64,000 nucleotides of DNA from Alphaproteobacteria bacterium (GTDB lineage: Bacteria; Pseudomonadota; Alphaproteobacteria; CACZRW01): contig JAFWAG010000021.1 of the NCBI GenBank assembly GCA_017507765.1, forward strand, positions 5,903-69,902, in the 5' to 3' direction. Below the pieces are notes generated by a model. The model worked only from the letters and a program-made list of their open reading frames with translations, was not told the DNA's origin and did no database searches. This document shows positions 1 to 22,661 of the stretch, piece by piece. Numbering within the stretch: position 1 is the stretch's first letter; the number at the start of each line of letters is the position of its first letter. Made by a program: the position numbers and the translations under genes.

Positions 1-117
1 GTAAAACGCCGGATAAAGGATATAAAACGCCCGTTAAGCTGTTGTTTATCTCCGTTTGGGGTAATCAGCCGCCCTTTCCTTTAGGGATAAAAGGTAAATA
101 AAACCTTGCGGATAAGG

Positions 118-155
118 CAAAAATAAAGGGGAGGCTTGAAAGCTTAACCTCCCCC
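118..155 (-). terminator. putative rho-independent terminator downstream of the AsmA-like gene
   Basis: Inverted repeat GGGGAGG (128-134) / CCTCCCC (148-154). On the minus strand the stem is followed by TTTATTTTTG (A-rich 118-127 on plus). A second hairpin, ATACCCG/CGGGTAT, lies at 156-180. Confidence 0.55.
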
Positions 156-232
156 ATACCCGCCGTACTCTTTCGGGTATAAAAAGAGTATAGTGCATAC
201 GATTGTATGTTGCAAGATTATTTTTTAATTTT

Positions 233-3200
233 TTATTCTAAGCCTTCGGTAGAGCCTGTGAACTTAACAATTCTCCCCACCTCTTCCTTTGCCTTATCAA
301 AAGCTTTCTTAGCTCGTAAAACGGCGGCTTCCGCTTGTTTGGCATCAGCAGCTTCTTCCGCCAATCTGGAAGCATTTTCGGCTTCATATCCGGCGTCGTC
401 AATTTTCTTTGCCGCATCGGAAATAATCGGCGCAAAAGGATTGGCCTTTTCCATATCCCGAGCATACTTCACAAACTTTGCCGCATCTTGAGCATATTTT
501 TTTGCGGTTGCTTTGGCGGAAATCGTCAAAACTTTAGCATAATTAGCATTGATTTTATCGATTGGTTCTTGGACTTTTTCGGTTATTCCCGCAATCAGTT
601 TAATTTCGGCATCGGTTATATTTTCTTTGCCGACGAAATCAACCAACGGAGAAAAGTCCAAGAGCATTTTTTCGGCTAACATACGGTTTTCCGCTGCAAT
701 ATTTTTGATAGAGGGAGTTATTTCTGCCATTTTTTCCGTAGTCAAAACTTTTTGATATGTATCTCCGACTTCTTTTTTCAAGGCTTCAAGTTTTTCCGTA
801 AAGTCTTGTTCTTGTTTCAAAGCTTCGGTTTCTTGGATTTTAGCTTTTTCCAAGGCCTCTTCTTTTATTTGTTCTTCTTTGGCTTTTGCTTCGCTCTGAA
901 GCTGTTTTTCAAGCTCTGTGTCTGCGAAGGTGTATATCGGTGCATCAAGGGTTCCCTTAATGATAACCGAGTAAGCCGGAATGTTTAGCATTGTATCTTC
1001 CGGCACTTTGACGGTTGTATTTAAATCAGAAGTTGTAAGGTCTAATTTAAAGGCAACAAAGGATTTTTTGTCTTTATTGTACAATAAATCCAACGGAGCC
1101 GCCGTTATTTGACCGTTATTTATATTAAATGTTCCGGTTAAGCTGTTAAACGGAGTGTTGTTGTTTTGCAAAGCCTGCCGGAAGGAAGAAAGGAATGTTG
1201 CAGATTCCTCTTCACCGTCGTCAAAAGTCTTTTGTAAAAAGTCCTGCGCTTTAGTCAAAGATAAGCCGGCTATTTCCCCGTTTGCAAAAGTAAATGTTCC
1301 TGAACCGCCCATACCGGAAACCATTTCATAAACACTGTTTCCTTTACCGGTCATACGAACTTTGAAGTCAGCCATTTCTGCGGACAAGTTAACTTTGTCT
1401 TTAGCATCAAAAAGGCTATTTACTTTTACTTTTGTGCCGTTAGCTTCCGCTGTGAACAAAGGAAAATCAGGACGCAAATCAAGCATTCCTTTAATGTTAA
1501 CCGTCCCCTCTTCTCCCATTTTTGCTTCAAGGGAAGTAAGTTCTGCAACCTTATTAAGCACTTTGATTTTTACCAGAGCGTCATTAAAGTTAGTTGTTCC
1601 GGCAACCAGAGTTTTTGCCGACAGATTAATTTGAGCCGTCAAAGTTTTCAAAAACTCGGTCAAAGCAAAAGGTTCTTTATCCCATTCCGGAGCTGTAGCC
1701 GGAAAAGCCGCCATGGTCTTGGTTGCAAAGTAATTATTTACATAGAACTTATCGGTTTCCAAAGATGCAATAAATACTTTCCGGTCATTTTTCTCTGATA
1801 TTCCGGCATTTCCGGTAATTTTATCGGCTCCGATATTCAGTTCCAATCCGGTTATTTTGGTTTGTCCTTTGGTAACGTCAAAGTTTCCGAAAAACTTAAA
1901 CTTACCCGTAATTTCCTGCGGTAGTTTATAGGAGGAGAATAAGCTGATTAAATTACGGGTTTGAGGGTGACGTATCTCAAAGGTAAACACGGCAGAAGAA
2001 GGCTTTTCTGCGGTTGCTTCTTCATAAGTTCCTTCGGCATTAAAGTAAGCTCCGGAAGTATCCCCCACCAGCTTAAATAAGATTTTTTCTTCAGAACCGT
2101 TTAAGGTGGCATCTAACAGAAGGTTAGTCATTTTTGCCGTATCAAAAGGCAAAGCTATACCCATGTCATTGATAATTTGATTAACTCGGCTAAGCTTAAG
2201 ATTTACTTCCAAGTTCTTCAATACCAATGGTTTACCTTCTTCTAGTCCAGAAACCTCTCCTTGCAGGCTTGCTGAATTACCGGCGATATTGTTCATTCTG
2301 AATTCGGTTACATTGGCAATTCCGTCTTTAATGCTACCGTTAAAGACAATTCGAGGTGAAGAAATCTGACCGTATGCAGATTCGGAAATATCAAGTTTAA
2401 TACGGGCATTATATTTATTGATAAATGGGAAAGCTTTGAAAATATCTTGTATTCCGGCGTTAATTCCTTTTTCCGAAATATTTTTGATATTGTCTTGTAT
2501 TGTAGTTTTATTCAAAGATTCCTTAATGTTTATTCCGGCTATCTGCAAATCAAGGTCAAAGTTATCTTCTTGCAAAGCCAAATCCGTTCCGATTTTTCCG
2601 TCAACGCTTATACTTCCGGCTTTGAAAACGATTTTATCCAGATAAAAAGAGTTGGGATTTAAGGCAAGTTCAGCTTTAAATGTACTGTTATCCGGCGGGA
2701 TACGGTCAGTAATTTCTGCGGGCAAAGGAAGAGCCAACCATTTAAGCAATTCTGCGGTTTTTTCTGACGATATATTAAAGTCTCCGGCAAGATTTAAGTC
2801 TTTTCCTTCCGCCGCTTTGGTTAATGTAAGGTTTCCTTGTAACAAGGAGGTTCCCGGCAGTTTAGCTTTTATATTACTGAAAGTTACGGTATTTTCCGAA
2901 GAATCAATCAGCATCGCCGTATCTTCTATGTTATCGTCATTATATTTTAATATATCGGCTTTAAGAGCAATCAAAGCGTTGTTGACAAAGGATATATTTC
3001 CTTCCGTTTCGCTTTGGCAGATATTCTTTATAAGGTCTACCCACGGCGAAAGCTCCAGATAGCTTATAATGAAATTAGCTCTAAGATTTTTATCTTCTTT
3101 GTTATTGGTTTCCGGCGCATACAAAGCAAAGGAGGCATCACCGACGGCAGAGTTTTCTCCTTGCTTTATCACAATATCGGCCAAGGAAACTTGGGTTCCC

Positions 3201-4057
3201 TGCATTTTAAGGGAAAGGTTTGCGGTAATCGGAGTTGTTAGATTGTCAGGAACTTTTACGTTCGGCATCCAAAAAGAAATAAGCTTGTCCGGATTAGCAA
3301 TATCCGCCACCACATTTCCGGCGAAAGAAAAGCTTGGGGTTGAATGAATAAGCTTTCCGCTGATAGCTATTGAAGCTCCGGTATCGGGACGAGAGAACAT
3401 AACATTTAATTCTGAAGGCTCTCTGGTATGAAGCTTATCCAAGGAAATAGCTAAACCTGTAGCTGCATCAAAAAGCTTAAACGTACCGTCAAAGCGATAA
3501 GGCCCCCGCAAAGTTTCGGCAATCATCTCTCCGTTCAGCTGTTCCAGATTATATTCAACATTCGAAGCTTTATTGGTAAAAATTATACTTCCGTCTTGAA
3601 TGGTTAGACTGTCAAAAGAAACTTCGTCCGGCATATTTCCGGCATTTGCGTCCGTACCGTTTGAGTTAAGGAAATCAAGCGTCCAGTTAACTTTTCCGTC
3701 CGGCAAGACGTCTATATAAACTTTTGGCTTGATAAGTTCAGTTCTGGTAATTCTCAGATTACCGGAAATCAAAGATTTCAAATCCAGCTCTGCGGTAATC
3801 TTTTCAATTTCCAACATATTCGGATTTGTTGTTCCGGTTACATTCGCAATTCTGGTTCTTTCGGCAGTGATAGTGGGAGACGGCATAAACTTCAAAGAAA
3901 AGTCTCCGTCAACCGACACATTTCTACCGGTCATCATTTGGAGGTTTTCGGTAAACTTTTGCTTTAATCCCTCGTCATCAACCAAAAGAGGAACGGAAAT
4001 TACTCCCCCTATTGCAACTAACACTATAATTGCCACTATAGTTAAAAGCTTTTTCAT
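233..4057 (-). CDS. AsmA-family outer-membrane biogenesis protein with a long C-terminal coiled-coil extension
   Basis: 1274-aa ORF with an N-terminal signal anchor (MKKLLTIVAIIVLVAIGGVISVPLLV). The ~1000-aa body is beta-rich, repetitive and G/N/T/S-rich, as in AsmA/TamB-like proteins. The last ~270 aa are K/E/A-rich heptad-like sequence. Confidence 0.7.
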   Translation of the reverse strand: MKKLLTIVAIIVLVAIGGVISVPLLVDDEGLKQKFTENLQMMTGRNVSVDGDFSLKFMPSPTITAERTRIANVTGTTNPNMLEIEKITAELDLKSLISGNLRITRTELIKPKVYIDVLPDGKVNWTLDFLNSNGTDANAGNMPDEVSFDSLTIQDGSIIFTNKASNVEYNLEQLNGEMIAETLRGPYRFDGTFKLFDAATGLAISLDKLHTREPSELNVMFSRPDTGASIAISGKLIHSTPSFSFAGNVVADIANPDKLISFWMPNVKVPDNLTTPITANLSLKMQGTQVSLADIVIKQGENSAVGDASFALYAPETNNKEDKNLRANFIISYLELSPWVDLIKNICQSETEGNISFVNNALIALKADILKYNDDNIEDTAMLIDSSENTVTFSNIKAKLPGTSLLQGNLTLTKAAEGKDLNLAGDFNISSEKTAELLKWLALPLPAEITDRIPPDNSTFKAELALNPNSFYLDKIVFKAGSISVDGKIGTDLALQEDNFDLDLQIAGINIKESLNKTTIQDNIKNISEKGINAGIQDIFKAFPFINKYNARIKLDISESAYGQISSPRIVFNGSIKDGIANVTEFRMNNIAGNSASLQGEVSGLEEGKPLVLKNLEVNLKLSRVNQIINDMGIALPFDTAKMTNLLLDATLNGSEEKILFKLVGDTSGAYFNAEGTYEEATAEKPSSAVFTFEIRHPQTRNLISLFSSYKLPQEITGKFKFFGNFDVTKGQTKITGLELNIGADKITGNAGISEKNDRKVFIASLETDKFYVNNYFATKTMAAFPATAPEWDKEPFALTEFLKTLTAQINLSAKTLVAGTTNFNDALVKIKVLNKVAELTSLEAKMGEEGTVNIKGMLDLRPDFPLFTAEANGTKVKVNSLFDAKDKVNLSAEMADFKVRMTGKGNSVYEMVSGMGGSGTFTFANGEIAGLSLTKAQDFLQKTFDDGEEESATFLSSFRQALQNNNTPFNSLTGTFNINNGQITAAPLDLLYNKDKKSFVAFKLDLTTSDLNTTVKVPEDTMLNIPAYSVIIKGTLDAPIYTFADTELEKQLQSEAKAKEEQIKEEALEKAKIQETEALKQEQDFTEKLEALKKEVGDTYQKVLTTEKMAEITPSIKNIAAENRMLAEKMLLDFSPLVDFVGKENITDAEIKLIAGITEKVQEPIDKINANYAKVLTISAKATAKKYAQDAAKFVKYARDMEKANPFAPIISDAAKKIDDAGYEAENASRLAEEAADAKQAEAAVLRAKKAFDKAKEEVGRIVKFTGSTEGLE

Positions 4058-4094
4058 CTTGTCCTCTTTTGATTGTTGTGCAGAAGTTTAGTCT

Positions 4095-4748
4095 TTAAAG
4101 AGTTCCGAATAAACGGTCGCCGGCATCTCCCAAGCCGGGAATTATATAAGCTTGGTCATTCAAGCATTCATCAATAGCTCCGATATATATAGGTATTTCC
4201 GGATAAGCCTTAGAGAACACTTCAACAGCGTCCATAGCTCCAAGTAAAGCCACAAAAATCATTTTATCTGTTTTGACCCCACGTTTTTTCAAAGCTTCGA
4301 CGGCGGCACAAGCAGAAAATCCGGTTGCGAACATAGGATCAACCAGAATGAAGTGTTGTTCTCTTACTTCCGGTATTTTTACAAAGTATTCGATTGGGCG
4401 TTTTGTTTCATGGTCACGATACATTCCTACGTGTCCGATTGCGGAATTAGGCAGAATATTTAACAATCCGTCTGCCATGAACAAACCGGCTCTTAAGATA
4501 GGAACGATAATAGGAGGCTCGCCTTCCAAAACCGGAGCTTTTTCCATGGTACACATCGGGGTATCGATTTTTCTGGTTGTCAAAGGCAGAGCCTTTGTCG
4601 CTTCATAACCGATTAAGACGGCTATTTCTTTTAACAAGTCCCGAAAATCACGAATCGAAGTATTTTTATCCCGCATATGGGACAATTTGTGCTGAACCAA
4701 AGGGTGGTCTACTACAAACAAACTTGGGTGTTCAGGATATTGTTTCAT
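4095..4748 (-). CDS. upp: uracil phosphoribosyltransferase
   Basis: 217 aa. Shows UPRTase family features: HPLVQHKLSHMRD near the N-terminus, PILRAG, a PRPP-binding loop (ILVDPMFATGFS) and the C-terminal IIPGLGDAGDRLFGT. Confidence 0.92.
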   Translation of the reverse strand: MKQYPEHPSLFVVDHPLVQHKLSHMRDKNTSIRDFRDLLKEIAVLIGYEATKALPLTTRKIDTPMCTMEKAPVLEGEPPIIVPILRAGLFMADGLLNILPNSAIGHVGMYRDHETKRPIEYFVKIPEVREQHFILVDPMFATGFSACAAVEALKKRGVKTDKMIFVALLGAMDAVEVFSKAYPEIPIYIGAIDECLNDQAYIIPGLGDAGDRLFGTL

Positions 4749-4935
4749 AAGGATTTTCCTTTCATTAGGCTTTATTTTTTATATATATTTTTTAATCAGT
4801 ATATACAAGAGAACCTATAGGCTATATCTTTTCCCACGATTTTAAAAACAATATTTTACGCACAAAGCAAAAATAAATTAACTTTATTTTATTAAATATA
4901 GCATAAAGCTTCTTTACAAGGGAAAATAGGTCGCC

Positions 4936-6252
4936 ATGAACATTGCGGATATTATACATCATAAATTAGAGCGCAAACAATGGACCAAGAAAGAAATCGA
5001 CTTTTTGGTAAATGGCTTGCTTGACTGGTCGGTATCGGAGGCAGAGGCTGGTGCCGTTATTATGGCAGTATCTTTTTTCGGTTTAAGTGCGGAAGAAACG
5101 GTCAATTTAACTTCTGCCATAGCGAAATCCGGCGACAAAATAAACTGGAAATCATCTAAACTTAACGGCCCGTTATTGGATAAGATATCTTCCGGCGGCA
5201 TTGGGGATAAAATCACTTTGATTTTAGCACCGTTAGTTGCGGCCTGCGGCGGTTATGTTCCGATTATATCTGCCAGAGGCCTTGGCTTTTCCGGCAATAC
5301 CATAGATAAGCTTGAAAGCATTCCTAATTACGACGGCGAACCTTCGGTTGCAGAGTTTCAATCCATTACCAAAGATATTGGTTGTGCGATTGCTTCCGAA
5401 GCCCCTCATTTTGCTCCTGCAAACCGCAGTTTATATACGATAAGAGAAGCCATCGGAGCATCAGATTGTATTTCTCTTTTGGTTGCCTCCATGCTTTCCC
5501 GTAAGCTAGCCGCCGGCTCCAAAGCTTTGGTGGCGGATATAAAAGTCGGCAGCGGAACGGTTATTTCGGACATAGAAACCGGCAGACTTATGGCCAACAC
5601 CCTTTTAAATACGGCAAAATCTTTAGGAATGTCCGTAACGGCAGTAATCTCAGATTCGCACCAAGTCATAGGCAAAAGTGCCGGCAATGCGGTGGAAGTC
5701 GAAGAAGCCATAGAGTTTTTAATCGGCAAACATCAAGATTTGCGGCTTATGGAGTTAGTATTAAGCCTTGGTACGGAAATGCTTTTGGCAGGAAAGCTTA
5801 TAACCTCTTATGAAGAAGGAAAACGCCGTCTTCGTGCCGCTTTGGATAGCGGAGAAGCCGCCGAAAAGTTCTCTCGTATGGTTATGCGCCTTTCCGGAGT
5901 TGGCAATATCTTGGAAAAATACCATACGATTTTACCAAAAGCACCGATTATCCGTCCGGTTTTCCCCGATAAAGAAGGATATATTTCTTCTTTGGACGGC
6001 AAAAAGATTGCCTCTTGTCTTGTGGTTATGAATGCCGCCCGCATCAGCCTTGACGAGATTATTGATTATCGTTCGGGACTTTCTTCTTGTCGCTCTTTGG
6101 GTGATTTTGTGGATTTGGATACGCCGCTGGCTTATATTCACGCCAAAGACGAAGCTTCTTTTGCAGAAGTTTCAGAAATCATAAAGGAAGCCTTCACTAT
6201 CAGTGAAATAGCTCCGGAAAAGGCTCCGGTAATTTATGAAACCCTCACCTGA
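4936..6252 (+). CDS. deoA: thymidine / pyrimidine-nucleoside phosphorylase family protein (divergent motifs)
   Basis: 438 aa, co-linear with DeoA across its length (GDKITLILAPLVAACGGYVPIISARGLG...IDKLESIP, SAGNAVEVEEAIEFL). It sits directly upstream of deoB. Several canonical motif residues differ; see the finding on this gene. Confidence 0.75.
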   Translation: MNIADIIHHKLERKQWTKKEIDFLVNGLLDWSVSEAEAGAVIMAVSFFGLSAEETVNLTSAIAKSGDKINWKSSKLNGPLLDKISSGGIGDKITLILAPLVAACGGYVPIISARGLGFSGNTIDKLESIPNYDGEPSVAEFQSITKDIGCAIASEAPHFAPANRSLYTIREAIGASDCISLLVASMLSRKLAAGSKALVADIKVGSGTVISDIETGRLMANTLLNTAKSLGMSVTAVISDSHQVIGKSAGNAVEVEEAIEFLIGKHQDLRLMELVLSLGTEMLLAGKLITSYEEGKRRLRAALDSGEAAEKFSRMVMRLSGVGNILEKYHTILPKAPIIRPVFPDKEGYISSLDGKKIASCLVVMNAARISLDEIIDYRSGLSSCRSLGDFVDLDTPLAYIHAKDEASFAEVSEIIKEAFTISEIAPEKAPVIYETLT

Positions 6253-6276
6253 TAATTAAAAGGAAATCCTCTTGTC

Positions 6277-7467
6277 GTGAAAAGAGTTATTGTTTGTATT
6301 TTGGATTCTTTTGGTATCGGCGGCGCTCCCGATGCTGCCGCTTATGATGATAACGGCGCAGACACTCTTGGTCATATTGCAAAAAATTATCCTTTACATA
6401 TCCCTAATTTATTAAAAAACGGACTTGGTGAAGCTTATTTTATGTGTAACGGCCGCTATCCTCAAGGATTTAACCGAGAAGAAGAACCGGACGGAGCATA
6501 TACCTATGCCTCTGAACAGAGTATTGGCAAAGACACCCCAAGCGGTCATTGGGAACTGATGGGACTTCCTGTTACCACCCCTTGGAGCCTTTTTCCCAAA
6601 GAATATCCAAGTTTTCCGCCGGATATACTGGAAAAAATAGCCAAGGAAGTAAATATTGACGGTTTCTTAGGGAACTATGCCGCTTCGGGAACAGAGATAC
6701 TTAAAGAATTAGGCGAAAAGCATTTACATCTTCTTTCCGAAGGTAAAGCTCTGCCGATAGTCTATACTTCTGCCGACAGCGTTATGCAGATAGCCGCCCA
6801 CGAAGAATTGTTCGGCTTGGAACGCTTATATCAAGTATGCCAAAAAGCAAGAGAAATCATGGACGATGCCGGCTATATGCTTGGCAGAGTTATTGCCCGC
6901 CCGTTTTTGGGTGAAACCTCCGCTACTTTCAAACGAACTCCCAACCGTCATGATTATTCTTTGCCTCCGCCCTCTCCTACCATTCTGGAGTATTTGGTAG
7001 GTCAAGGAAAACAGATAACCGGCATAGGCAAAATATATGATATTTTTGCAGGTAAAGGGATAACGAAAAAGATTTTAGCCAGCGGCAACGAAGATATTTT
7101 CTCTGTTTTGGTTTCTGAAATCAAAAACAATGCTTCTGCGGCGGTTATTCTGGCTAACTTTGTTGATTTTGATATGCTTTACGGTCATCGCAGAGATATC
7201 AAAGGATACGCCAAAGCCTTGGAGTATTTTGACTCCTGCCTGCCTAAATTAAAGGAAGCGATGAGAGATGATGACATTTTAATAATTACGGCTGACCATG
7301 GCTGTGATCCCGATTTTAAAGGCGTAAACCATACCCGTGAATGCATTCCCGTTTTAATCAGCGGCAAGAATATCCAAGGAAAAAGCCTTCCTCCCGCAGA
7401 TTCTTTTTGTATCGTTGCCAAGGTAATAAATCAGCATTTAGCTGTTAACTATTCGTTAAGTAACTGA
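6277..7467 (+). CDS. deoB: phosphopentomutase
   Basis: 396 aa with a GTG start. Motifs ILDSFGIGGAPDA, GADTLGHIA, NFVDFDMLYGHRRD and ITADHGCDP match the metal-dependent phosphopentomutase family. Confidence 0.92.
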   Translation: MKRVIVCILDSFGIGGAPDAAAYDDNGADTLGHIAKNYPLHIPNLLKNGLGEAYFMCNGRYPQGFNREEEPDGAYTYASEQSIGKDTPSGHWELMGLPVTTPWSLFPKEYPSFPPDILEKIAKEVNIDGFLGNYAASGTEILKELGEKHLHLLSEGKALPIVYTSADSVMQIAAHEELFGLERLYQVCQKAREIMDDAGYMLGRVIARPFLGETSATFKRTPNRHDYSLPPPSPTILEYLVGQGKQITGIGKIYDIFAGKGITKKILASGNEDIFSVLVSEIKNNASAAVILANFVDFDMLYGHRRDIKGYAKALEYFDSCLPKLKEAMRDDDILIITADHGCDPDFKGVNHTRECIPVLISGKNIQGKSLPPADSFCIVAKVINQHLAVNYSLSN

Positions 7468-7568
7468 TTTTTGTAATAACCGTAACAAAGGTTGATTTGA
7501 GAAATCCCGATTTTCCTGATACTTTTCTGGAAAATAAACTATTAAAGTAAACGGAAAGGGATATTTTC

Positions 7569-8546
7569 ATGTCAGACAAAGAACTTCACAATCAGCAAGA
7601 TACTGAAGGCTTTATGGCTGAATATGCCTTAAAGCAAAAAACTATCCGTAACGCTATCAGCTGCTACGGTGTTGGTTTGCATTCCGGTTCAAAAGTAAAA
7701 CTCACTTTAAAGCCTGCGGATATTGATTCCGGCATTACTTTTTTCCGTACGGATATTTCCGGTAACGGTGCCGCAATCAAAGCTGATTATCGCAATGTTG
7801 TCGATACTCGCCTTTGCACCTGCCTTGGCGACGGCAAAGGCAATAATATTGCTACGGTTGAACATTTGATGTCCGCCATTCACGGTTTGGGGATTACCAA
7901 CTTAAATGTTGAAGTAAGCGGTCCGGAAATGCCGATTTTGGACGGCAGCGCATCTTCCTTTGTCTTTTTGTTAAACAGTGCCGGCTTGGAAGTCCAAGAT
8001 GCCCCGTTAAAAGCAATCAGAATAAAGAAATCCGTTACGGTTTCTGAAAACGGAGCTTTTGTAACTCTGCTTCCTTCTTCTACACTGTTTAATATTGATT
8101 TCTCTTTGGATTATTCTGCTTGCCCGTTTATCGGCCGCCAGCAAATGGATTTTGCTTTAAATCCTGTTGAGTATGTTCAAAATATTTCTTCGGCTCGTAC
8201 ATTTGGACTTGCGAAAGAAGTCGAACAGATTAAAGCCATGGGACTTGCCAAAGGCGGTTCTTTGGAAAACGTTTTGGTTGTTACCGACAAAGATGTTTTA
8301 AATCCGGAAGGACTTCGTTACGAAGACGAATTCGTACGTCATAAAATCCTTGACGCTGTTGGCGATATGTACATGGGCGGCTATACCTTGATTGGCACCA
8401 TGATTGCTTCCAAATCGGGACATCGTATGAACAATCTTGCTTTGCAGGCATTGTTTGCCGATAAAGATGCTTGGGAATTAGTTGAAGTTACCGCCAATAA
8501 TTATCCGGTTTCTCTTTCTAATTTAAAGAAACGGAACATCGCCTAA
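7569..8546 (+). CDS. lpxC: UDP-3-O-acyl-N-acetylglucosamine deacetylase
   Basis: 325 aa with GVGLHSGSKVKLTLKPA, ATVEHLMSA, EMPILDGSA, ARTFG and FVRHKILDAVGD motifs. An alternative start at ATG 7614 would remove a 15-aa N-terminal extension. Confidence 0.93.
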   Translation: MSDKELHNQQDTEGFMAEYALKQKTIRNAISCYGVGLHSGSKVKLTLKPADIDSGITFFRTDISGNGAAIKADYRNVVDTRLCTCLGDGKGNNIATVEHLMSAIHGLGITNLNVEVSGPEMPILDGSASSFVFLLNSAGLEVQDAPLKAIRIKKSVTVSENGAFVTLLPSSTLFNIDFSLDYSACPFIGRQQMDFALNPVEYVQNISSARTFGLAKEVEQIKAMGLAKGGSLENVLVVTDKDVLNPEGLRYEDEFVRHKILDAVGDMYMGGYTLIGTMIASKSGHRMNNLALQALFADKDAWELVEVTANNYPVSLSNLKKRNIA

Positions 8547-8639
8547 AAAATCCTTATTGTCTTATAATTAAATTGATGCATATTTACCCTCAAGGTGTTA
8601 TGCTCTGTGGCGATTTATAATTATATGGATAAGTTTCTT

Positions 8640-9464
8640 ATGGCTAATTTCGGACGTTTTATTGCTTTTTTGTTTTTGTTTTTTGTGGTTGTTATGTTTG
8701 TCGGCAGCTGTGCCTCAGATGCGGACAAAGCCCAAAAAGAGCGCACGGTTGAAGAATTATACAACGAAGGTTATGAGGCTTTAGGCAAGCATAATTATGA
8801 AAAAGCCGCTAAAATGTTTGATGAATTGGAACGCCAACACCCCTATTCTTCTTGGGCGTCAAAGGCGGAGCTTATGGCGGCATATTCTTATTATGAAAAC
8901 GAAAAGTATGATGATGCGATTTTAGCCTTAGACCGTTTTATTCAGCTTCACCCCGGCAATAAAAACACACCTTACGCATATTATATGCGAGCCATGTGCT
9001 TTTATGAGCAGATATCTGATGTTTATCGTGATCAAAAAATCACCCTTCTTGCCCGTGATGCGCTTCAAGAAGTGTTCAGACGTTTTCCAGACAGTGTTTA
9101 TGCCCGTGATGCCAAAGTTAAATACGATTTGACCATAGACCACCTTGCGGGAAAAGAAATGGCTATCGGCCGTTATTATCAAGAACAGAACGATATTCTG
9201 GCGGCACTTAACCGTTATCAGCAGGTTGTTATTGAATATCAGACGACCACTCATGTTCAGGAAGCTTTATATCGTTTGGTTGAATGCTATACGACCTTAG
9301 GCTTAAAGAAGGAAGCAATCCGCAGTGCGGCGGTTTTGGGATACAACTATCCGAACAGCGAGTGGTATGATATGGCGTACAAGCTTGCGGAACTTGACGC
9401 AGAACAGTTAAAGAAAATCAAGGAAGAGGAAGCCGAAAACTCTTGGTTAGGCTTGTCTTTTTAA
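8640..9464 (+). CDS. bamD: outer membrane protein assembly factor BamD (TPR lipoprotein)
   Basis: The ORF is open from 8595. ATG 8640 gives MANFGRFIAFLFLFFVVVMFVGSC with a lipobox (VGSC). The body is TPR-like, with the typical BamD phrases YEKAAKMFDELERQHPYS and RFPDSVYARDA. Confidence 0.88.
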   Translation: MANFGRFIAFLFLFFVVVMFVGSCASDADKAQKERTVEELYNEGYEALGKHNYEKAAKMFDELERQHPYSSWASKAELMAAYSYYENEKYDDAILALDRFIQLHPGNKNTPYAYYMRAMCFYEQISDVYRDQKITLLARDALQEVFRRFPDSVYARDAKVKYDLTIDHLAGKEMAIGRYYQEQNDILAALNRYQQVVIEYQTTTHVQEALYRLVECYTTLGLKKEAIRSAAVLGYNYPNSEWYDMAYKLAELDAEQLKKIKEEEAENSWLGLSF

Positions 9465-9491
9465 CCTCCGGCATTAACAAAAGAGCAAAAA

Positions 9492-13851
<4,360 letters not shown>

Positions 13852-18183: not shown

Positions 18184-18360
18184 ATGTTTACAGAAGAAAA
18201 TGAAAATAAATACTTATCCGATGAAATAAAGATGCGTCCTGCCGAACGGGAACGCTTTATCAAACAAGCGGAAAAACTCCGCCGTAATATGGAGCTTAGG
18301 AAGAGGCAGCTTCGGGAAAGAGCGGAAATTACCCAAGAAAAAAAGGACGGAGAAGATTAA
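18184..18360 (+). CDS. possible small basic protein (58 aa), function unknown
   Basis: ATG 18184 preceded by GAGGGAAAAA. Encodes MFTEENENKYLSDEIKMRPAERERFIKQAEKLRRNMELRKRQLRERAEITQEKKDGED. It is below the 60-aa cutoff of the ORF track and I recognised no family. Confidence 0.3.
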   Translation: MFTEENENKYLSDEIKMRPAERERFIKQAEKLRRNMELRKRQLRERAEITQEKKDGED

Positions 18361-18391: not shown

Positions 18392-19867
18392 CTATAAGGT
18401 TACCACTCCTTTGGAGAATAGTACCAAAGCAGAGATTGCAATCAAAATAATCGCAGTTGCCAATACTTTTTCTCCATTAGAGAATATCGGCTTTCCGTCT
18501 TTGGCTTCTTTTCTTGCCCAAACAAAGAATGGAATACCAACAGCCAAGAAAACCACCGCCATCAACAGATACGAAGGCCCTGCCGCATACAAAAGCCACA
18601 CGGCGAACAGCGAACCGACGATACCGCTGAACAAAGCATGACTGCGTTTTACGGCAAACCCGTTTGGATATTCTCCGTCCTCGCATATCTTCCACAAATA
18701 AGCCGTAGAAGTTAAATACGCAGGCAGAACCATGACGCCGGTAATGCTAAGCATTGTGTTCCAAGCATCATTAGAGAAGTAAACCAACAGCATTGCCAAC
18801 TGCATTACGGAACTGGTTACCCACAAAGATACAGCCGGAGCTTCATTTTTGTTGGTTTTAGCAAACACTTTCGGGAAAGTTCCGTTTTCTGCTGCCGCAT
18901 GAGGAATTGCAGCGGTAATCATTGTCCAAGCAAGCCAGCTTGACAATACCGCCACCAACATTCCGGCATTCATCAGCCAGCTTCCCCAAGGCCCTACCGC
19001 TCTTTCCAGAACTGCTGCCGTAGAAGGAGGAGCTGCCGCGGCAATTTCTGCCTGAGTCATAAAGCCAAACGGAAGCAAGGAAAGCAATGCATATATGCAC
19101 AAGCACCCGACAAAGCCGATTAATGTTGCTTTACTTACGGTATCTTGGCTTTTTGCTTTACCGGACATTACAACGGCGCCTTCAATACCGATGAAAGCCC
19201 ACAAGGTTACGAGCATGGTTGCTTTTACTTGTTCCGGAATACTTCCCAAATCTTTTTCTGCGCCATTAACCATATGTCCCCAGAAATCAAAAGAGAATTG
19301 ATCCAGATTGAACATAAAGATTAAAATAATGGCAAACAAGGTCAAAGCAATAAAGTTAACGGAAGTGCCGATAATATTCACAATCGTAGCTTGCCTTACC
19401 CCTTTAAGAACCAAGAAGTTAAACAGCCAGATAATTATCGAACCGCCGATAATGGAATATAGGTTATTTCCGCCTTGAAAATACGGAGGGAAGAAATAAT
19501 TTAAAGCATCCATAGTTATAACGGCATACCCGACATTTCCGAATATTTGGCATAACCAGTATCCCCAGCCGATAGTAAATCCGACATAAGGACCGAACCC
19601 TTCCCTGCTGTACATATATATACCTGCTTTCAAGTCAGGTTTTACCACGGAAAGAACTCTGAAGGTATTTGCGATAAAGTAAATACCTATACCCGTAACA
19701 ATCCACGCTATGATTATCGGACCGGCGGCCGCTACGCTTCCCATGTTTTGGGGCAAGTTATAAACTCCGCCTCCAATCATAGAACTTACTACGATTGCTG
19801 CCAGAGCAATAACTCCCAACCCCGCCGGATTGGTAGCCGTAGTGCTTTTTGCATTTTTCTGTATCAT
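18392..19867 (-). CDS. aaxC: APC-family basic amino acid antiporter (ArcD/AaxC-type arginine:agmatine or arginine:ornithine exchanger)
   Basis: 491 aa with about 13 TM helices. The N-terminal motif SSMIGGGVYNLPQNM and the GIYMYSREGFGPYVGF segment are typical of the ArcD subfamily. It lies immediately downstream of the pyruvoyl arginine decarboxylase gene. Confidence 0.8.
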   Translation of the reverse strand: MIQKNAKSTTATNPAGLGVIALAAIVVSSMIGGGVYNLPQNMGSVAAAGPIIIAWIVTGIGIYFIANTFRVLSVVKPDLKAGIYMYSREGFGPYVGFTIGWGYWLCQIFGNVGYAVITMDALNYFFPPYFQGGNNLYSIIGGSIIIWLFNFLVLKGVRQATIVNIIGTSVNFIALTLFAIILIFMFNLDQFSFDFWGHMVNGAEKDLGSIPEQVKATMLVTLWAFIGIEGAVVMSGKAKSQDTVSKATLIGFVGCLCIYALLSLLPFGFMTQAEIAAAAPPSTAAVLERAVGPWGSWLMNAGMLVAVLSSWLAWTMITAAIPHAAAENGTFPKVFAKTNKNEAPAVSLWVTSSVMQLAMLLVYFSNDAWNTMLSITGVMVLPAYLTSTAYLWKICEDGEYPNGFAVKRSHALFSGIVGSLFAVWLLYAAGPSYLLMAVVFLAVGIPFFVWARKEAKDGKPIFSNGEKVLATAIILIAISALVLFSKGVVTL

Positions 19868-19940
19868 CTGTATATGCTCCCTAAAAAGGTTATAACAGGT
19901 GCCGCAGATTATCCGCAGCTCCTGTTATAAATACTTTTGC

Positions 19941-20522
19941 TTATACTTTTACCGGCTCGGCATACTCAAAGTTCAAGAATCCGAGGCAGGTTAAGGAATA
20001 ACCAAAGTTTTGGGTAATGTTCACATAGTTATGGAAGAATTGGAAATCGCTGTGTTTTTCCACATCTCTTAACATAAGTTCATGGTTTAAAGATTTTGTA
20101 AGCCACATTTCGCAATGAGCCTTTGCAATATCATCATCAATGAAGGTATCAAAGAACTCGACATATTCGGCAGCCCAACCGCCGATAAACTTACCGTCTT
20201 TATCTTTTCCCCAACATATACCGACACCGGTAGCAATCGCTTTGTGTTCGGTTGCCGCCGCACCGTGTCCTGCCATAATTACTTCCAGCACCGCACCGTG
20301 TTTAAAGCTTTTTTCGACTTTTTCCACCGGCACGATATTGTTAAACAGTTCCGGAGGCAGAACGGAAGTATAAGGCACAACGTTAAAGTCCTGAATCTTT
20401 GCTTGCGTCAGAGCAGAGTCATAACAGAATGTTTCAAATGGCTGCGGAGGAATGCCGTCCTCTGCCAATCCTGCACCGCCGGTATGAAAAGCCAATGTCG
20501 GGTAACGAGTTCCTACAGTCAT
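19941..20522 (-). CDS. aaxB: pyruvoyl-dependent arginine decarboxylase (AaxB / PvlArgDC type)
   Basis: The ORF is open from 20612, but ATG 20522 has AAGGAG 7 nt upstream and gives a 193-aa product. [25 protein letters not shown] aligns with the archaeal PvlArgDC self-cleavage region (..NLIRISSIMPPE). A Thr52-Ser53 pair sits at the position reported for chlamydial AaxB. Confidence 0.85.
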
Positions 20523-20734
20523 AATAAATCTCCTTAAAACAGAATTAAAAACAATATTAAAGAACTGCGTACCAATGCGCCGTTCCTGCGAATAAGGATA
20601 AAAGGAAACCACCCTCGGTCAAACTAGCCATAGAGTTATAGAAATAACAAAAAGCTTTGCAAAACAAAGCATTAGGTCAAACAAACATACTTAAGTATAT
20701 GTCTGGAGCAACTAATTCCAATTGCATTAACCTC

Positions 20735-20805: not shown

Positions 20806-22661
20806 ATGTTTTCGGAAAAAATTAAACTTTCTACCCCCCCCCGCTAGGAAATTGCGCCGCCGCCGGTAGTATTACGGTTGAAGCGATTATAGTTTTAGGG
20901 CTTATAGCCGCCTTAACACCGGTACTTTATAAGCATGTATCTGACCGTCGTCAGGATATAGACAACATCAACGAAGCGAATCGTTTTCTTTTATTAAAGA
21001 AGGCGGCATCGGAGTATATTAGCAACCACCGCCACAGTTTAAGCGTTGGTAATACCGTTCTTGAGCCTGACGATATAGGGTTAGAGCTTACGGGTTATCA
21101 AATAGGCATCAGGAAAGAATCGGACGGGACGATAAATGCGATGATTGCCGCTACTTCTGGCGGCAATGATTTAAAAGCGGCGAAGGTTGCTTCATTATTG
21201 GGCGTTTCTGCGGGGATATATTCGGCTCAGGATAGCAGTAAAGCATGGGGTATCAAGGGAGTTTGGGCAGAGAACATAGCGAACTATGGTTTTACGAGTT
21301 TGCCGACTGGCATTACGGTTTTGACGACTGCATATAAGGAAGAAACCACCGGCGGGATTAACGAAGAACAGTTAAAAGAAATCATTGAGAGCACGTCTTA
21401 TGACACGTTAACGACCAAGAAGTTTTGCCTAGACAATCCGAATATACCGGAAGATGAACGGTGCGTAGAAGATTGGGATTTAGCCGTCATCAATCCGGTT
21501 GAGATTATTGACGGCTGTAATTCCGGCACGCAAAGTGCGTGTCAGAAGGGTTGGGAAAAGAATATCAATCGCAGTTGTGAGCAGATATCCCAAAGATATA
21601 AAAAGATAGGCTTTGCCGCCACTTCGGGGATATACAAAATCACCACCGGCGCAACTACCCAAGTTGAGAAAGCCTGTTACTTTGTGAATGGAGACCTCCC
21701 AACTAATGCTCAGTTAATCGAAGCGGCAAAAAGTAATGACATCGCTCGCAGATACGACTGGGAAAATAATAAGATTACGGCAAGCTGTACTTCTATCATC
21801 ACGAACTGGAACTCTGCCCCAAGCGGACTTTATACTCATGTAAGCGGAACAAGTACTTACAGTGGGTCTCAGCCATGCTTGTTTGTGGGCAGCCGACTTG
21901 CCAACAATAACGAGACTATCACGCAGTGTAACAGCGGAGGCGGAAGCAGTGTTGCTTGCCGCTACGGCTGGAAGTTTGATGTTAATCGTTCCTGCGCAAG
22001 GGTGATTGCCACATGGACGAGCGCACCGACAGGTTGGTATCAGATTACAACTTCTTCATCATCGAGTTCCGCCCCGTGTGTCTTTACGGGTAACCGTGTT
22101 GCCACCGCCGCAGAAGTCGTTGCTCAATGCAATTGGTCAACCACCAGCAGTGCCATGGCGAGCAGCGTCCAATGCCGTTACGGCTACCTCAAAGGCTATA
22201 ACACCAGTTGTACTAATGTCATCAACAACTACGCCGCCGGCAAAGGCATAGAAAACAGCATCGTATCTGCTAGTGGCGGCTGGCGCGAATGCTGCGATTG
22301 TTGTAAGACTTGTGCAAACATAGGTACAGTAAGCGGAGGCGAATGCAAGAATGTAAATGGTTGTGCTTGGGTACGGTCTACGTCAACTAAGAATTATTGG
22401 GATTCACAGACGTTCTGCAGTAATTTAGGCATGGAGTTAAAGTCCAAATCTCAATTACAAGCTGCCGGATTATGGAATATAGGTTCAAATCCGTTCAGCG
22501 TACCTAGATGGCATTGGACCACGGATGTTTGGAGTGGCAACTCAAGTTGGGGAGCCCACGTTTGGCTCGGTAATAGCAGTGTTAGCCATTGCCCGAGAAG
22601 CAATGCAGGTTGGTACGAGGGCTACCAGATCAACATCTACGCATTGTGTGGGCTAAAGTAG
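20806..22661 (+). CDS. prepilin-leader, Cys-rich-repeat, lectin-like surface protein; frameshifted at a poly-C tract (phase-OFF as sequenced)
   Basis: ATG 20806 reads MFSEKIKLSTPPR and then stops at TAG 20845. The adjacent frame is open from 20826 to 22661 and encodes ..AAAG|SITVEAIIVLGLIAALTPVLYKHV.., co-linear with the 611-aa paralogue at 59321. One extra C would restore a 618-codon ORF. The ORF track reports only the 506-aa part from internal Met 21141. Confidence 0.8.
20834..20842 (+). repeat. C9 homopolymeric tract (candidate slipped-strand mispairing site)
   Basis: Nine consecutive C counted directly at 20834-20842, inside the leader-peptide codons. It sets the reading-frame relationship between ATG 20806 and the long downstream ORF. 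Confidence 0.9.

Follow-up and report, generated by a model that had tools for sequence, protein, structure and literature searches.

The window analyzed here, a 64,000-nt stretch of contig JAFWAG010000021.1, belongs to the metagenome-assembled genome (MAG) of an uncultured alphaproteobacterium, whose assembly comprises 1.41 Mb and is 88% complete. Three consecutive genes on the minus strand of the window are an open reading frame (ORF) of 193 amino acids (aa), an ORF of 491 aa, and thrS. A sequence-only reading of this DNA had recognized in the two ORFs the chlamydial gene pair aaxB-aaxC. Chlamydial AaxB is a 195-aa proenzyme that cleaves itself at Ser53, and chlamydial AaxC has been characterized as an arginine:agmatine antiporter (Giles et al. 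2009, PMC2720952). Our analysis indicates that the two ORFs very probably form a two-gene module, aaxB-aaxC, whose members are orthologs of the core genes of chlamydial aaxABC, a system for arginine:agmatine exchange.

The 193-aa protein matches the pyruvoyl-dependent arginine decarboxylase family (Pfam PF01862, PvlArgDC) with 84.2 bits over residues 8 to 147, far above the cut-off of 22.7 bits. It falls far below the cut-offs of the NCBIfam equivalogs for archaeal-type PdaD (NF009064, 31.2 versus 207 bits; TIGR00286, 29.1 versus 107 bits), and these profile scores indicate that it is not a PdaD-type member. For chlamydial comparisons we used the database sequences of Chlamydia felis AaxB (CF0286) and of the AaxB proteins of C. 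suis, C. pecorum, and C. muridarum, together with the C. felis locus; a chlamydia-like bait served solely to retrieve database entries. The window protein is 72% identical to C. felis AaxB (86% positives) over its full length with one single-residue gap, which bears out its earlier assignment to the chlamydial AaxB type. The cleavage pair predicted from the sequence, Thr52-Ser53, aligns without gaps to Thr52-Ser53 of C. felis AaxB, within the context Y51-T52-S53-V54. In an alignment of 16 diverse homologs with identities down to 38%, Ser53, Asn47, and Glu119 are invariant and Thr52 is nearly so. The canonical PvlArgDC proteins of three large alphaproteobacterial genomes instead carry Ser-Ser at this site (..VSSILPP..), and the contrast between Thr-Ser and Ser-Ser that had been proposed is therefore real. 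Cleavage between Thr52 and Ser53 is predicted to split the protein into a beta chain of 52 aa and an alpha chain of 141 aa, the latter bearing an N-terminal pyruvoyl group.

The relationship to solved structures appears, from modeling, to be visible only at the level of the fold. A phmmer search of AaxB against the sequences in the Protein Data Bank returned nothing relevant. The AlphaFold2 model (predicted local distance difference test score, 78; predicted template modeling score, 0.77) matched the Methanocaldococcus jannaschii PvlArgDC entries 1N2M and 2QQD in Foldseek with a probability of 1.00, an E value of about 1e-9, and 15 to 18% identity. These two entries are the S53A proenzyme and the N47A mutant, and the next match was the pyruvoyl histidine decarboxylase 1PYA. 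Among the more distant PvlArgDC-like homologs, eight that are 38 to 50% identical (P0130, P0135, P0140, P0143, P0150, P0136, P0137, and P0145) seem to begin with a signal peptide-like or lipoprotein-like leader or have a long extension at the N terminus (387 to 479 aa), which suggests exported or fused pyruvoyl decarboxylase-like proteins.

The 491-aa protein scores 551.3 bits against TIGR00905, the model for basic amino acid/polyamine antiporters (cut-off, 409), and aligns gap-free with C. felis AaxC across 484 residues at 60% identity. It also matches the ArcD model TIGR03810 (490.6 bits; cut-off, 591), the histidine-histamine model NF040512 (472 bits; cut-off, 725), and the AdiC equivalog (157.5 bits; cut-off, 574), in each case below the curated cut-off. 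In a phylogeny rooted on ArcD-like paralogs, the AaxC orthologs form a clade with 100/100 support, within which the chlamydial sequences form a clade of their own (100/99). By these comparisons, the nearest characterized relative of the transporter is chlamydial AaxC, and the window AaxB and AaxC are best regarded as orthologs of their chlamydial counterparts. The second gene thus encodes an AaxC-type APC antiporter, in keeping with the ArcD/AaxC type named in the sequence-only reading, and it follows aaxB on the same strand in the order seen at the C. felis locus.

We assessed how widely the pair occurs at three levels. It is present in all three genomes of the window's order, which represent two genera and are all incomplete (83 to 88%). 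In an evenly sampled survey of 401 alphaproteobacterial species, the AaxB type was found in 12 species from five families, all with genomes of 1.1 to 2.0 Mb; the three large genomes mentioned above encode canonical PvlArgDC instead. An AaxC ortholog (at least 60% identity) occurs in exactly the same 12 genomes, where the next-best transporters are 37 to 47% identical. Finally, at least 550 stretches in a collection of one genome per species encode a relative. We examined the best 80 of these, all of which are gut or rumen MAGs, nearly all labeled Alphaproteobacteria, from humans, rabbits, yaks, sheep, goats, deer, and other animals; no Chlamydia was among the matches listed. A search among 50%-identity cluster representatives gave 156 matches, none of them a named chlamydial sequence. 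In 79 of the 80 related loci, the gene immediately after aaxB, in the same orientation, is aaxC; the remaining locus is truncated where its contig ends. The pair lies downstream of mfd within the genus, and its neighbors differ beyond the genus. Nearly identical DNA turns up in a minimum of 20 metagenome runs on gut samples, contributed by several studies. The hosts are organisms of gut-lumen metagenomes and not demonstrably intracellular. One gut metatranscriptome run contains contigs 95 to 99% identical to parts of aaxB and aaxC, which is weak evidence that both genes are expressed.

The third chlamydial component, the OprB-type porin AaxA, is missing, as had been noted for the region upstream of aaxB. 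Neither the PF04966 (OprB) profile nor tblastn with three AaxA proteins gave a match across the window's 88%-complete assembly, and no aaxA-like gene lies at the loci of the other two genomes of the order. An AaxA-like OprB gene (33 to 43% identical) does lie within 6 kb of the pair in 34 of the 80 related alphaproteobacterial loci, placed divergently upstream, directly upstream, or downstream of aaxC. The lack of aaxA therefore appears to be a trait of the window's lineage rather than of the alphaproteobacterial module, and the gene has probably been lost in this lineage.

Several loci outside recognized Chlamydia also carry related genes. Complete codirectional OprB-aaxB-aaxC operons occur at three of them, on metagenome and MAG contigs (L138, L139, and L103), and at L139 the operon is followed by a gene for a pyridoxal phosphate (PLP)-dependent Orn/Lys/Arg decarboxylase. 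A locus labeled Victivallaceae (L105, positions 1 to 12585) has the order aro genes-aaxA-aaxB-aaxC-DAO-mdh-pgi, a near gene-for-gene match to C. felis, and judging from this gene order the MAG is probably a mislabeled Chlamydiaceae relative. In a Cetobacterium MAG (L106, positions 6001 to 11938), an AaxB-type gene precedes genes for agmatine deiminase, N-carbamoylputrescine amidase, a DDAH-like protein, and a pyruvoyl histidine decarboxylase, and an antiporter gene is lacking; the gene content indicates an AaxB-type enzyme wired into polyamine and amine metabolism. Within the Alphaproteobacteria, a 5.3-Mb genome (G244) encodes a Ser-Ser PvlArgDC (L007, approximately 2040 to 2942) followed by an ORF that resembles the arginase/agmatinase family by eye only. 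If that ORF is truly an arginase or agmatinase, this would be the classic biosynthetic pairing, unlike the pairing of the AaxB type with an antiporter.

The features of the window locus are collected in Table 1. The aaxB-aaxC spacer is 73 nt long and contains an interrupted stem of 18 bp followed by a run of five U residues. The predicted RNA fold of the spacer region has an energy of -31.6 kcal/mol (z = -5.6), and none of 200 shuffled sequences was as stable. A hairpin with a U-run recurs in the same spacer at 40 of 76 related alphaproteobacterial loci under a strict parser, compared with 6% of shuffled spacers; the hairpin-bearing spacers of these relatives measure 45 to 100 nt, and their sequences differ among loci. 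Chlamydial aaxB-aaxC spacers, in contrast, are approximately 9 to 17 nt, without a hairpin and too short for such a structure. The element may be an attenuator or an mRNA-stabilizing end that sets the AaxB:AaxC ratio. It probably lowers read-through into aaxC, which would leave the cell with more enzyme than transporter, and as an attenuator it may be specific to the gut-bacterial version of the module. The aaxB leader matched no Rfam family in a search for riboswitches and known leader RNAs, and its fold is not significant (z = -1.6).

Table 1. Coordinates of aaxB, aaxC, and associated elements in the window
Feature	Position	Strand	Basis
aaxB, pyruvoyl-dependent arginine decarboxylase proenzyme, 193 aa	19941..20522	-	PF01862; identity to C. 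felis AaxB; AaxB clade; AlphaFold/Foldseek
aaxB ribosome-binding site, AAGGAG	20530..20535	-	Read from the sequence; 7 nt upstream of the ATG at 20522
Thr52-Ser53 codons, predicted serinolysis site	20364..20369	-	ACT (Thr52, 20367-20369) and TCC (Ser53, 20364-20366) read directly from the sequence; homolog alignment; cleavage itself predicted
Two sigma-70-like promoter candidates in the aaxB 5' noncoding region	20721-20694 and 20622-20595 (within 20594..20721)	-	Consensus scan, 9/12 matches each; low confidence
Intercistronic stem-loop plus U5, terminator- or attenuator-like	19883..19930 (stem-loop 19890-19930; U5 19883-19887)	-	RNA fold; recurrence among relatives
aaxC ribosome-binding site, AGGGAG	19877-19882	-	Lies 3' of the hairpin and U5
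aaxC, APC-family arginine/agmatine antiporter, 491 aa	18392..19867	-	TIGR00905; identity to C. felis AaxC; AaxC clade; co-occurrence with aaxB
Weak terminator-like hairpin between aaxC and thrS, some 110 nt past the end of aaxC	18267..18283	-	Pattern scan; low confidence

The flanking genes are unrelated to the pair, as the sequence-only reading had stated for thrS on one side and a pilin-like gene on the other. The latter (21141-22661) encodes a 506-aa Cys-rich protein and lies between mfd and aaxB in the window. It is absent from the corresponding locus of a sister species of the same genus (L021, genome G001), where mfd ends approximately 200 nt upstream of aaxB; the difference (20806-22661) is thus an insertion or deletion within the genus. 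Upstream of the pilin-like gene lies a poly-C tract (20834-20842) that counts nine C residues in the window and is one base shorter in a contig from a public run (X18), so its length varies between samples.

We propose that the pair works as follows. AaxB would be translated as a 193-aa proenzyme that cleaves itself between Thr52 and Ser53, with Ser53 becoming the pyruvoyl cofactor at the N terminus of the large chain. The mature enzyme would convert cytoplasmic L-arginine to agmatine and CO2 with the consumption of one proton, and AaxC, as an APC antiporter of the inner membrane, would import external arginine (+1) in exchange for internal agmatine (+2). Such a cycle would take protons from the cytoplasm and export net positive charge. 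The benefit would be protection against acid, as the cell would meet it in the stomach, the abomasum, or acidic niches of the gut, with a possible addition to the membrane potential. Agmatine would be an exported end product, in a genome without enzymes that use it.

The surrounding metabolism bears on this proposal and on its competitors. Genes of the arginase/agmatinase family and arginine deiminase (arcA, PF02274) are absent from all three genomes of the window's order, and agmatine deiminase (aguA) and N-carbamoylputrescine amidase (aguB) were not found in the window's genome. Because no agmatine-using enzymes were found, agmatine has no onward route, and because no arginine deiminase was found, an arginine/ornithine exchanger has no arc pathway in which to operate. 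Together with the strict linkage of enzyme and antiporter, these absences favor a simple exchange of arginine in for agmatine out, for acid tolerance or membrane energization. The alternative that the agmatine made by AaxB feeds putrescine and polyamine synthesis, with the transporter just importing arginine, draws on the Cetobacterium locus, where an AaxB-type gene 75% identical to the chlamydia-like bait precedes the genes for agmatine deiminase and N-carbamoylputrescine amidase, and on the canonical PvlArgDC of the one large alphaproteobacterial genome that precedes the arginase/agmatinase-like ORF identified by eye only. We consider this alternative improbable given the missing arginase/agmatinase, aguA, and aguB genes and the strict association with an exchanger-subfamily antiporter. 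Still less probable is that the transporter exchanges arginine for ornithine (as ArcD) or histidine for histamine and adjoins the decarboxylase gene only incidentally. Its scores of 491 bits against TIGR03810 and 472 bits against NF040512 speak for such a role, as does the occurrence of similar antiporters alongside histidine decarboxylases in other gut phyla (PMC8465708). Both scores nevertheless lie under their curated cut-offs, the order lacks arginine deiminase, and a query with the Cetobacterium histidine decarboxylase found no pyruvoyl histidine decarboxylase homolog in the genome; the fully supported clade with chlamydial AaxC and the perfect co-occurrence with aaxB likewise oppose it. 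Some observations do count against an arginine/agmatine exchange module. The biochemistry of the alphaproteobacterial members is read across from the chlamydial system. Polyamine synthesis can be the task of close AaxB-type relatives, as for the Cetobacterium gene, which is followed by aguA and aguB and has no antiporter partner. The transporter subfamily of AaxC also includes the arginine/ornithine and histidine/histamine exchangers against whose models it scores below cut-off, and antiporters annotated as "aaxC" adjoin histidine decarboxylases in other gut bacteria (PMC8465708). Lastly, the assembly is 88% complete, so aaxA, an agmatinase gene, or aguA may sit in the unassembled part.

The sequence-only reading had gone on to suggest horizontal acquisition of the pair as a two-gene cassette, plausibly between intracellular bacteria with a common host; we weighed this as a recent exchange in one host cell between bacteria such as Chlamydiae and this alphaproteobacterium. 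Identity across phyla is indeed very high (72% for AaxB and 60% for AaxC), the neighboring genes bear no relation to the pair and synteny around it does not extend beyond the genus, and the distribution is patchy, covering 12 of 401 alphaproteobacterial species and apparently one of three sampled genomes of the family closest by Mfd. Yet the evidence makes a recent exchange very unlikely. Both genera of the order carry the pair in every genome available, hundreds of gut and rumen MAG species share it, and its sources are gut-lumen metagenomes. The comparison of codon usage and base composition with the rest of the genome showed no anomaly that would betray recent acquisition: the GC contents of aaxB and aaxC (0.443 and 0.444) lie at the 49th to 50th percentile of the genome's genes and GC at third codon positions lies at the 56th to 69th, while codon-usage likelihood places aaxB at the 77th percentile and aaxC at the 7th, which is low but not extreme for a membrane protein. 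In both the AaxB and the AaxC tree, the sequences of the window's family group by themselves, with full support, in a deep clade on a long stem that does not sit beside Chlamydia. The AaxB tree, rooted on relatives 38 to 54% identical, places the window in an AaxB clade with 98/96 support against these outgroups. Its first branches are P0367, P0340, P0361/P0321, and an alphaproteobacterial family (f57), and the chlamydial clade (99/95) arises inside the remaining gut-bacterial diversity, rather than the reverse. The AaxC tree is compatible with Chlamydia either as sister to the alphaproteobacterial sequences or nested among them: its base is a polytomy from which the window's family, the chlamydial clade, and a further three groups of Alphaproteobacteria emerge, and an approximately unbiased test did not reject alphaproteobacterial monophyly (p = 0.36).

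In place of a recent intracellular exchange, we conclude that aaxBC is a long-resident, clade-wide possession of an order of small-genome, uncultured animal-gut Alphaproteobacteria, and that its link to the Chlamydiaceae is real but old. A transfer of aaxABC into the ancestor of the Chlamydiaceae has already been inferred, with the source not named (PMC2720952). Since the chlamydial AaxB clade is nested among gut-bacterial lineages, transfer from a gut-bacterial pool into the Chlamydiaceae is a likelier direction than transfer from Chlamydia into the window organism. The basal AaxB lineages P0367 and P0340 are those with complete codirectional OprB-aaxB-aaxC operons at L138 and L139. We tentatively suggest, at somewhat less than even odds, that animal-gut bacteria, including small-genome Alphaproteobacteria and these two aaxABC-operon lineages, were the reservoir from which the Chlamydiaceae ancestor drew aaxABC, with the window representing a secondary two-gene version that has lost the porin. 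With Mfd identity taken as an approximate yardstick for the species, f19 is the one family that is clearly nearest to the order of the window (60 to 61%), and the pair is apparently present in one of its three sampled genomes; the other aax-bearing families fall outside the approximately 150 best Mfd matches listed. The spread among alphaproteobacterial orders may reflect vertical descent with losses or old transfers, and this yardstick is compatible with either.

In the literature, the Aax system has counted as a peculiarity of chlamydiae, acquired from a source that is not named. Here the aaxB-aaxC pair proves to be standard in a large group of uncultured Alphaproteobacteria from guts and rumens, which gives the system a plausible ecological home and the Chlamydiaceae a candidate pool of donors. 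A prediction that follows is that these common commensals of the gut convert arginine from the diet or the host into agmatine, a bioactive amine, which they export, and gain acid tolerance or membrane energy in return. The identification of the window pair itself is confirmatory rather than surprising, as a known kind of system correctly recognized in a little-studied host group.

Placed among known systems, the module resembles AdiA/AdiC of Escherichia coli (AR3) in its logic, as both would combine proton-consuming arginine decarboxylation with arginine/agmatine antiport. The parts differ, as AdiA is a large PLP enzyme unrelated to AaxB, and AaxC is only distantly related to AdiC. ArcD of the arginine deiminase pathway shares the APC subfamily TIGR00905 with AaxC, and the nearest alphaproteobacterial paralogs are 37 to 47% identical to AaxC. 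However, the order has no arcA, AaxC scores under the ArcD cut-off, and the ArcD-like paralogs fall as an outgroup to the AaxC clade. PdaD of the archaeal type (M. jannaschii; 1N2M and 2QQD) has the same fold as AaxB (Foldseek probability, 1.00; template modeling score, 0.6 to 0.77), the same Pfam family, and the same Asn47/Ser53 numbering. It is a biosynthetic enzyme with no antiporter partner, and the window AaxB departs from it in its 15 to 18% identity, its scores below the PdaD equivalog cut-offs, its escape from phmmer detection, its Thr-Ser in place of Ser-Ser, and a length some 30 to 40 residues beyond that of the solved chains. The closest counterpart is AaxABC of the Chlamydiaceae (C. 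pneumoniae CPn1033-1031 and the C. felis CF0286 locus), with an AaxB 72% identical and of nearly the same length (195 aa versus 193 in the window) that has the same Thr52-Ser53, an AaxC 60% identical without gaps, and the same order and strand of the two genes. The window differs in that its assembly lacks the OprB porin gene aaxA and in that its spacer is 73 nt with a terminator-like hairpin, against approximately 9 nt for the chlamydial spacer. Its host is a gut-lumen alphaproteobacterium, whereas the Chlamydiaceae are obligate intracellular pathogens.

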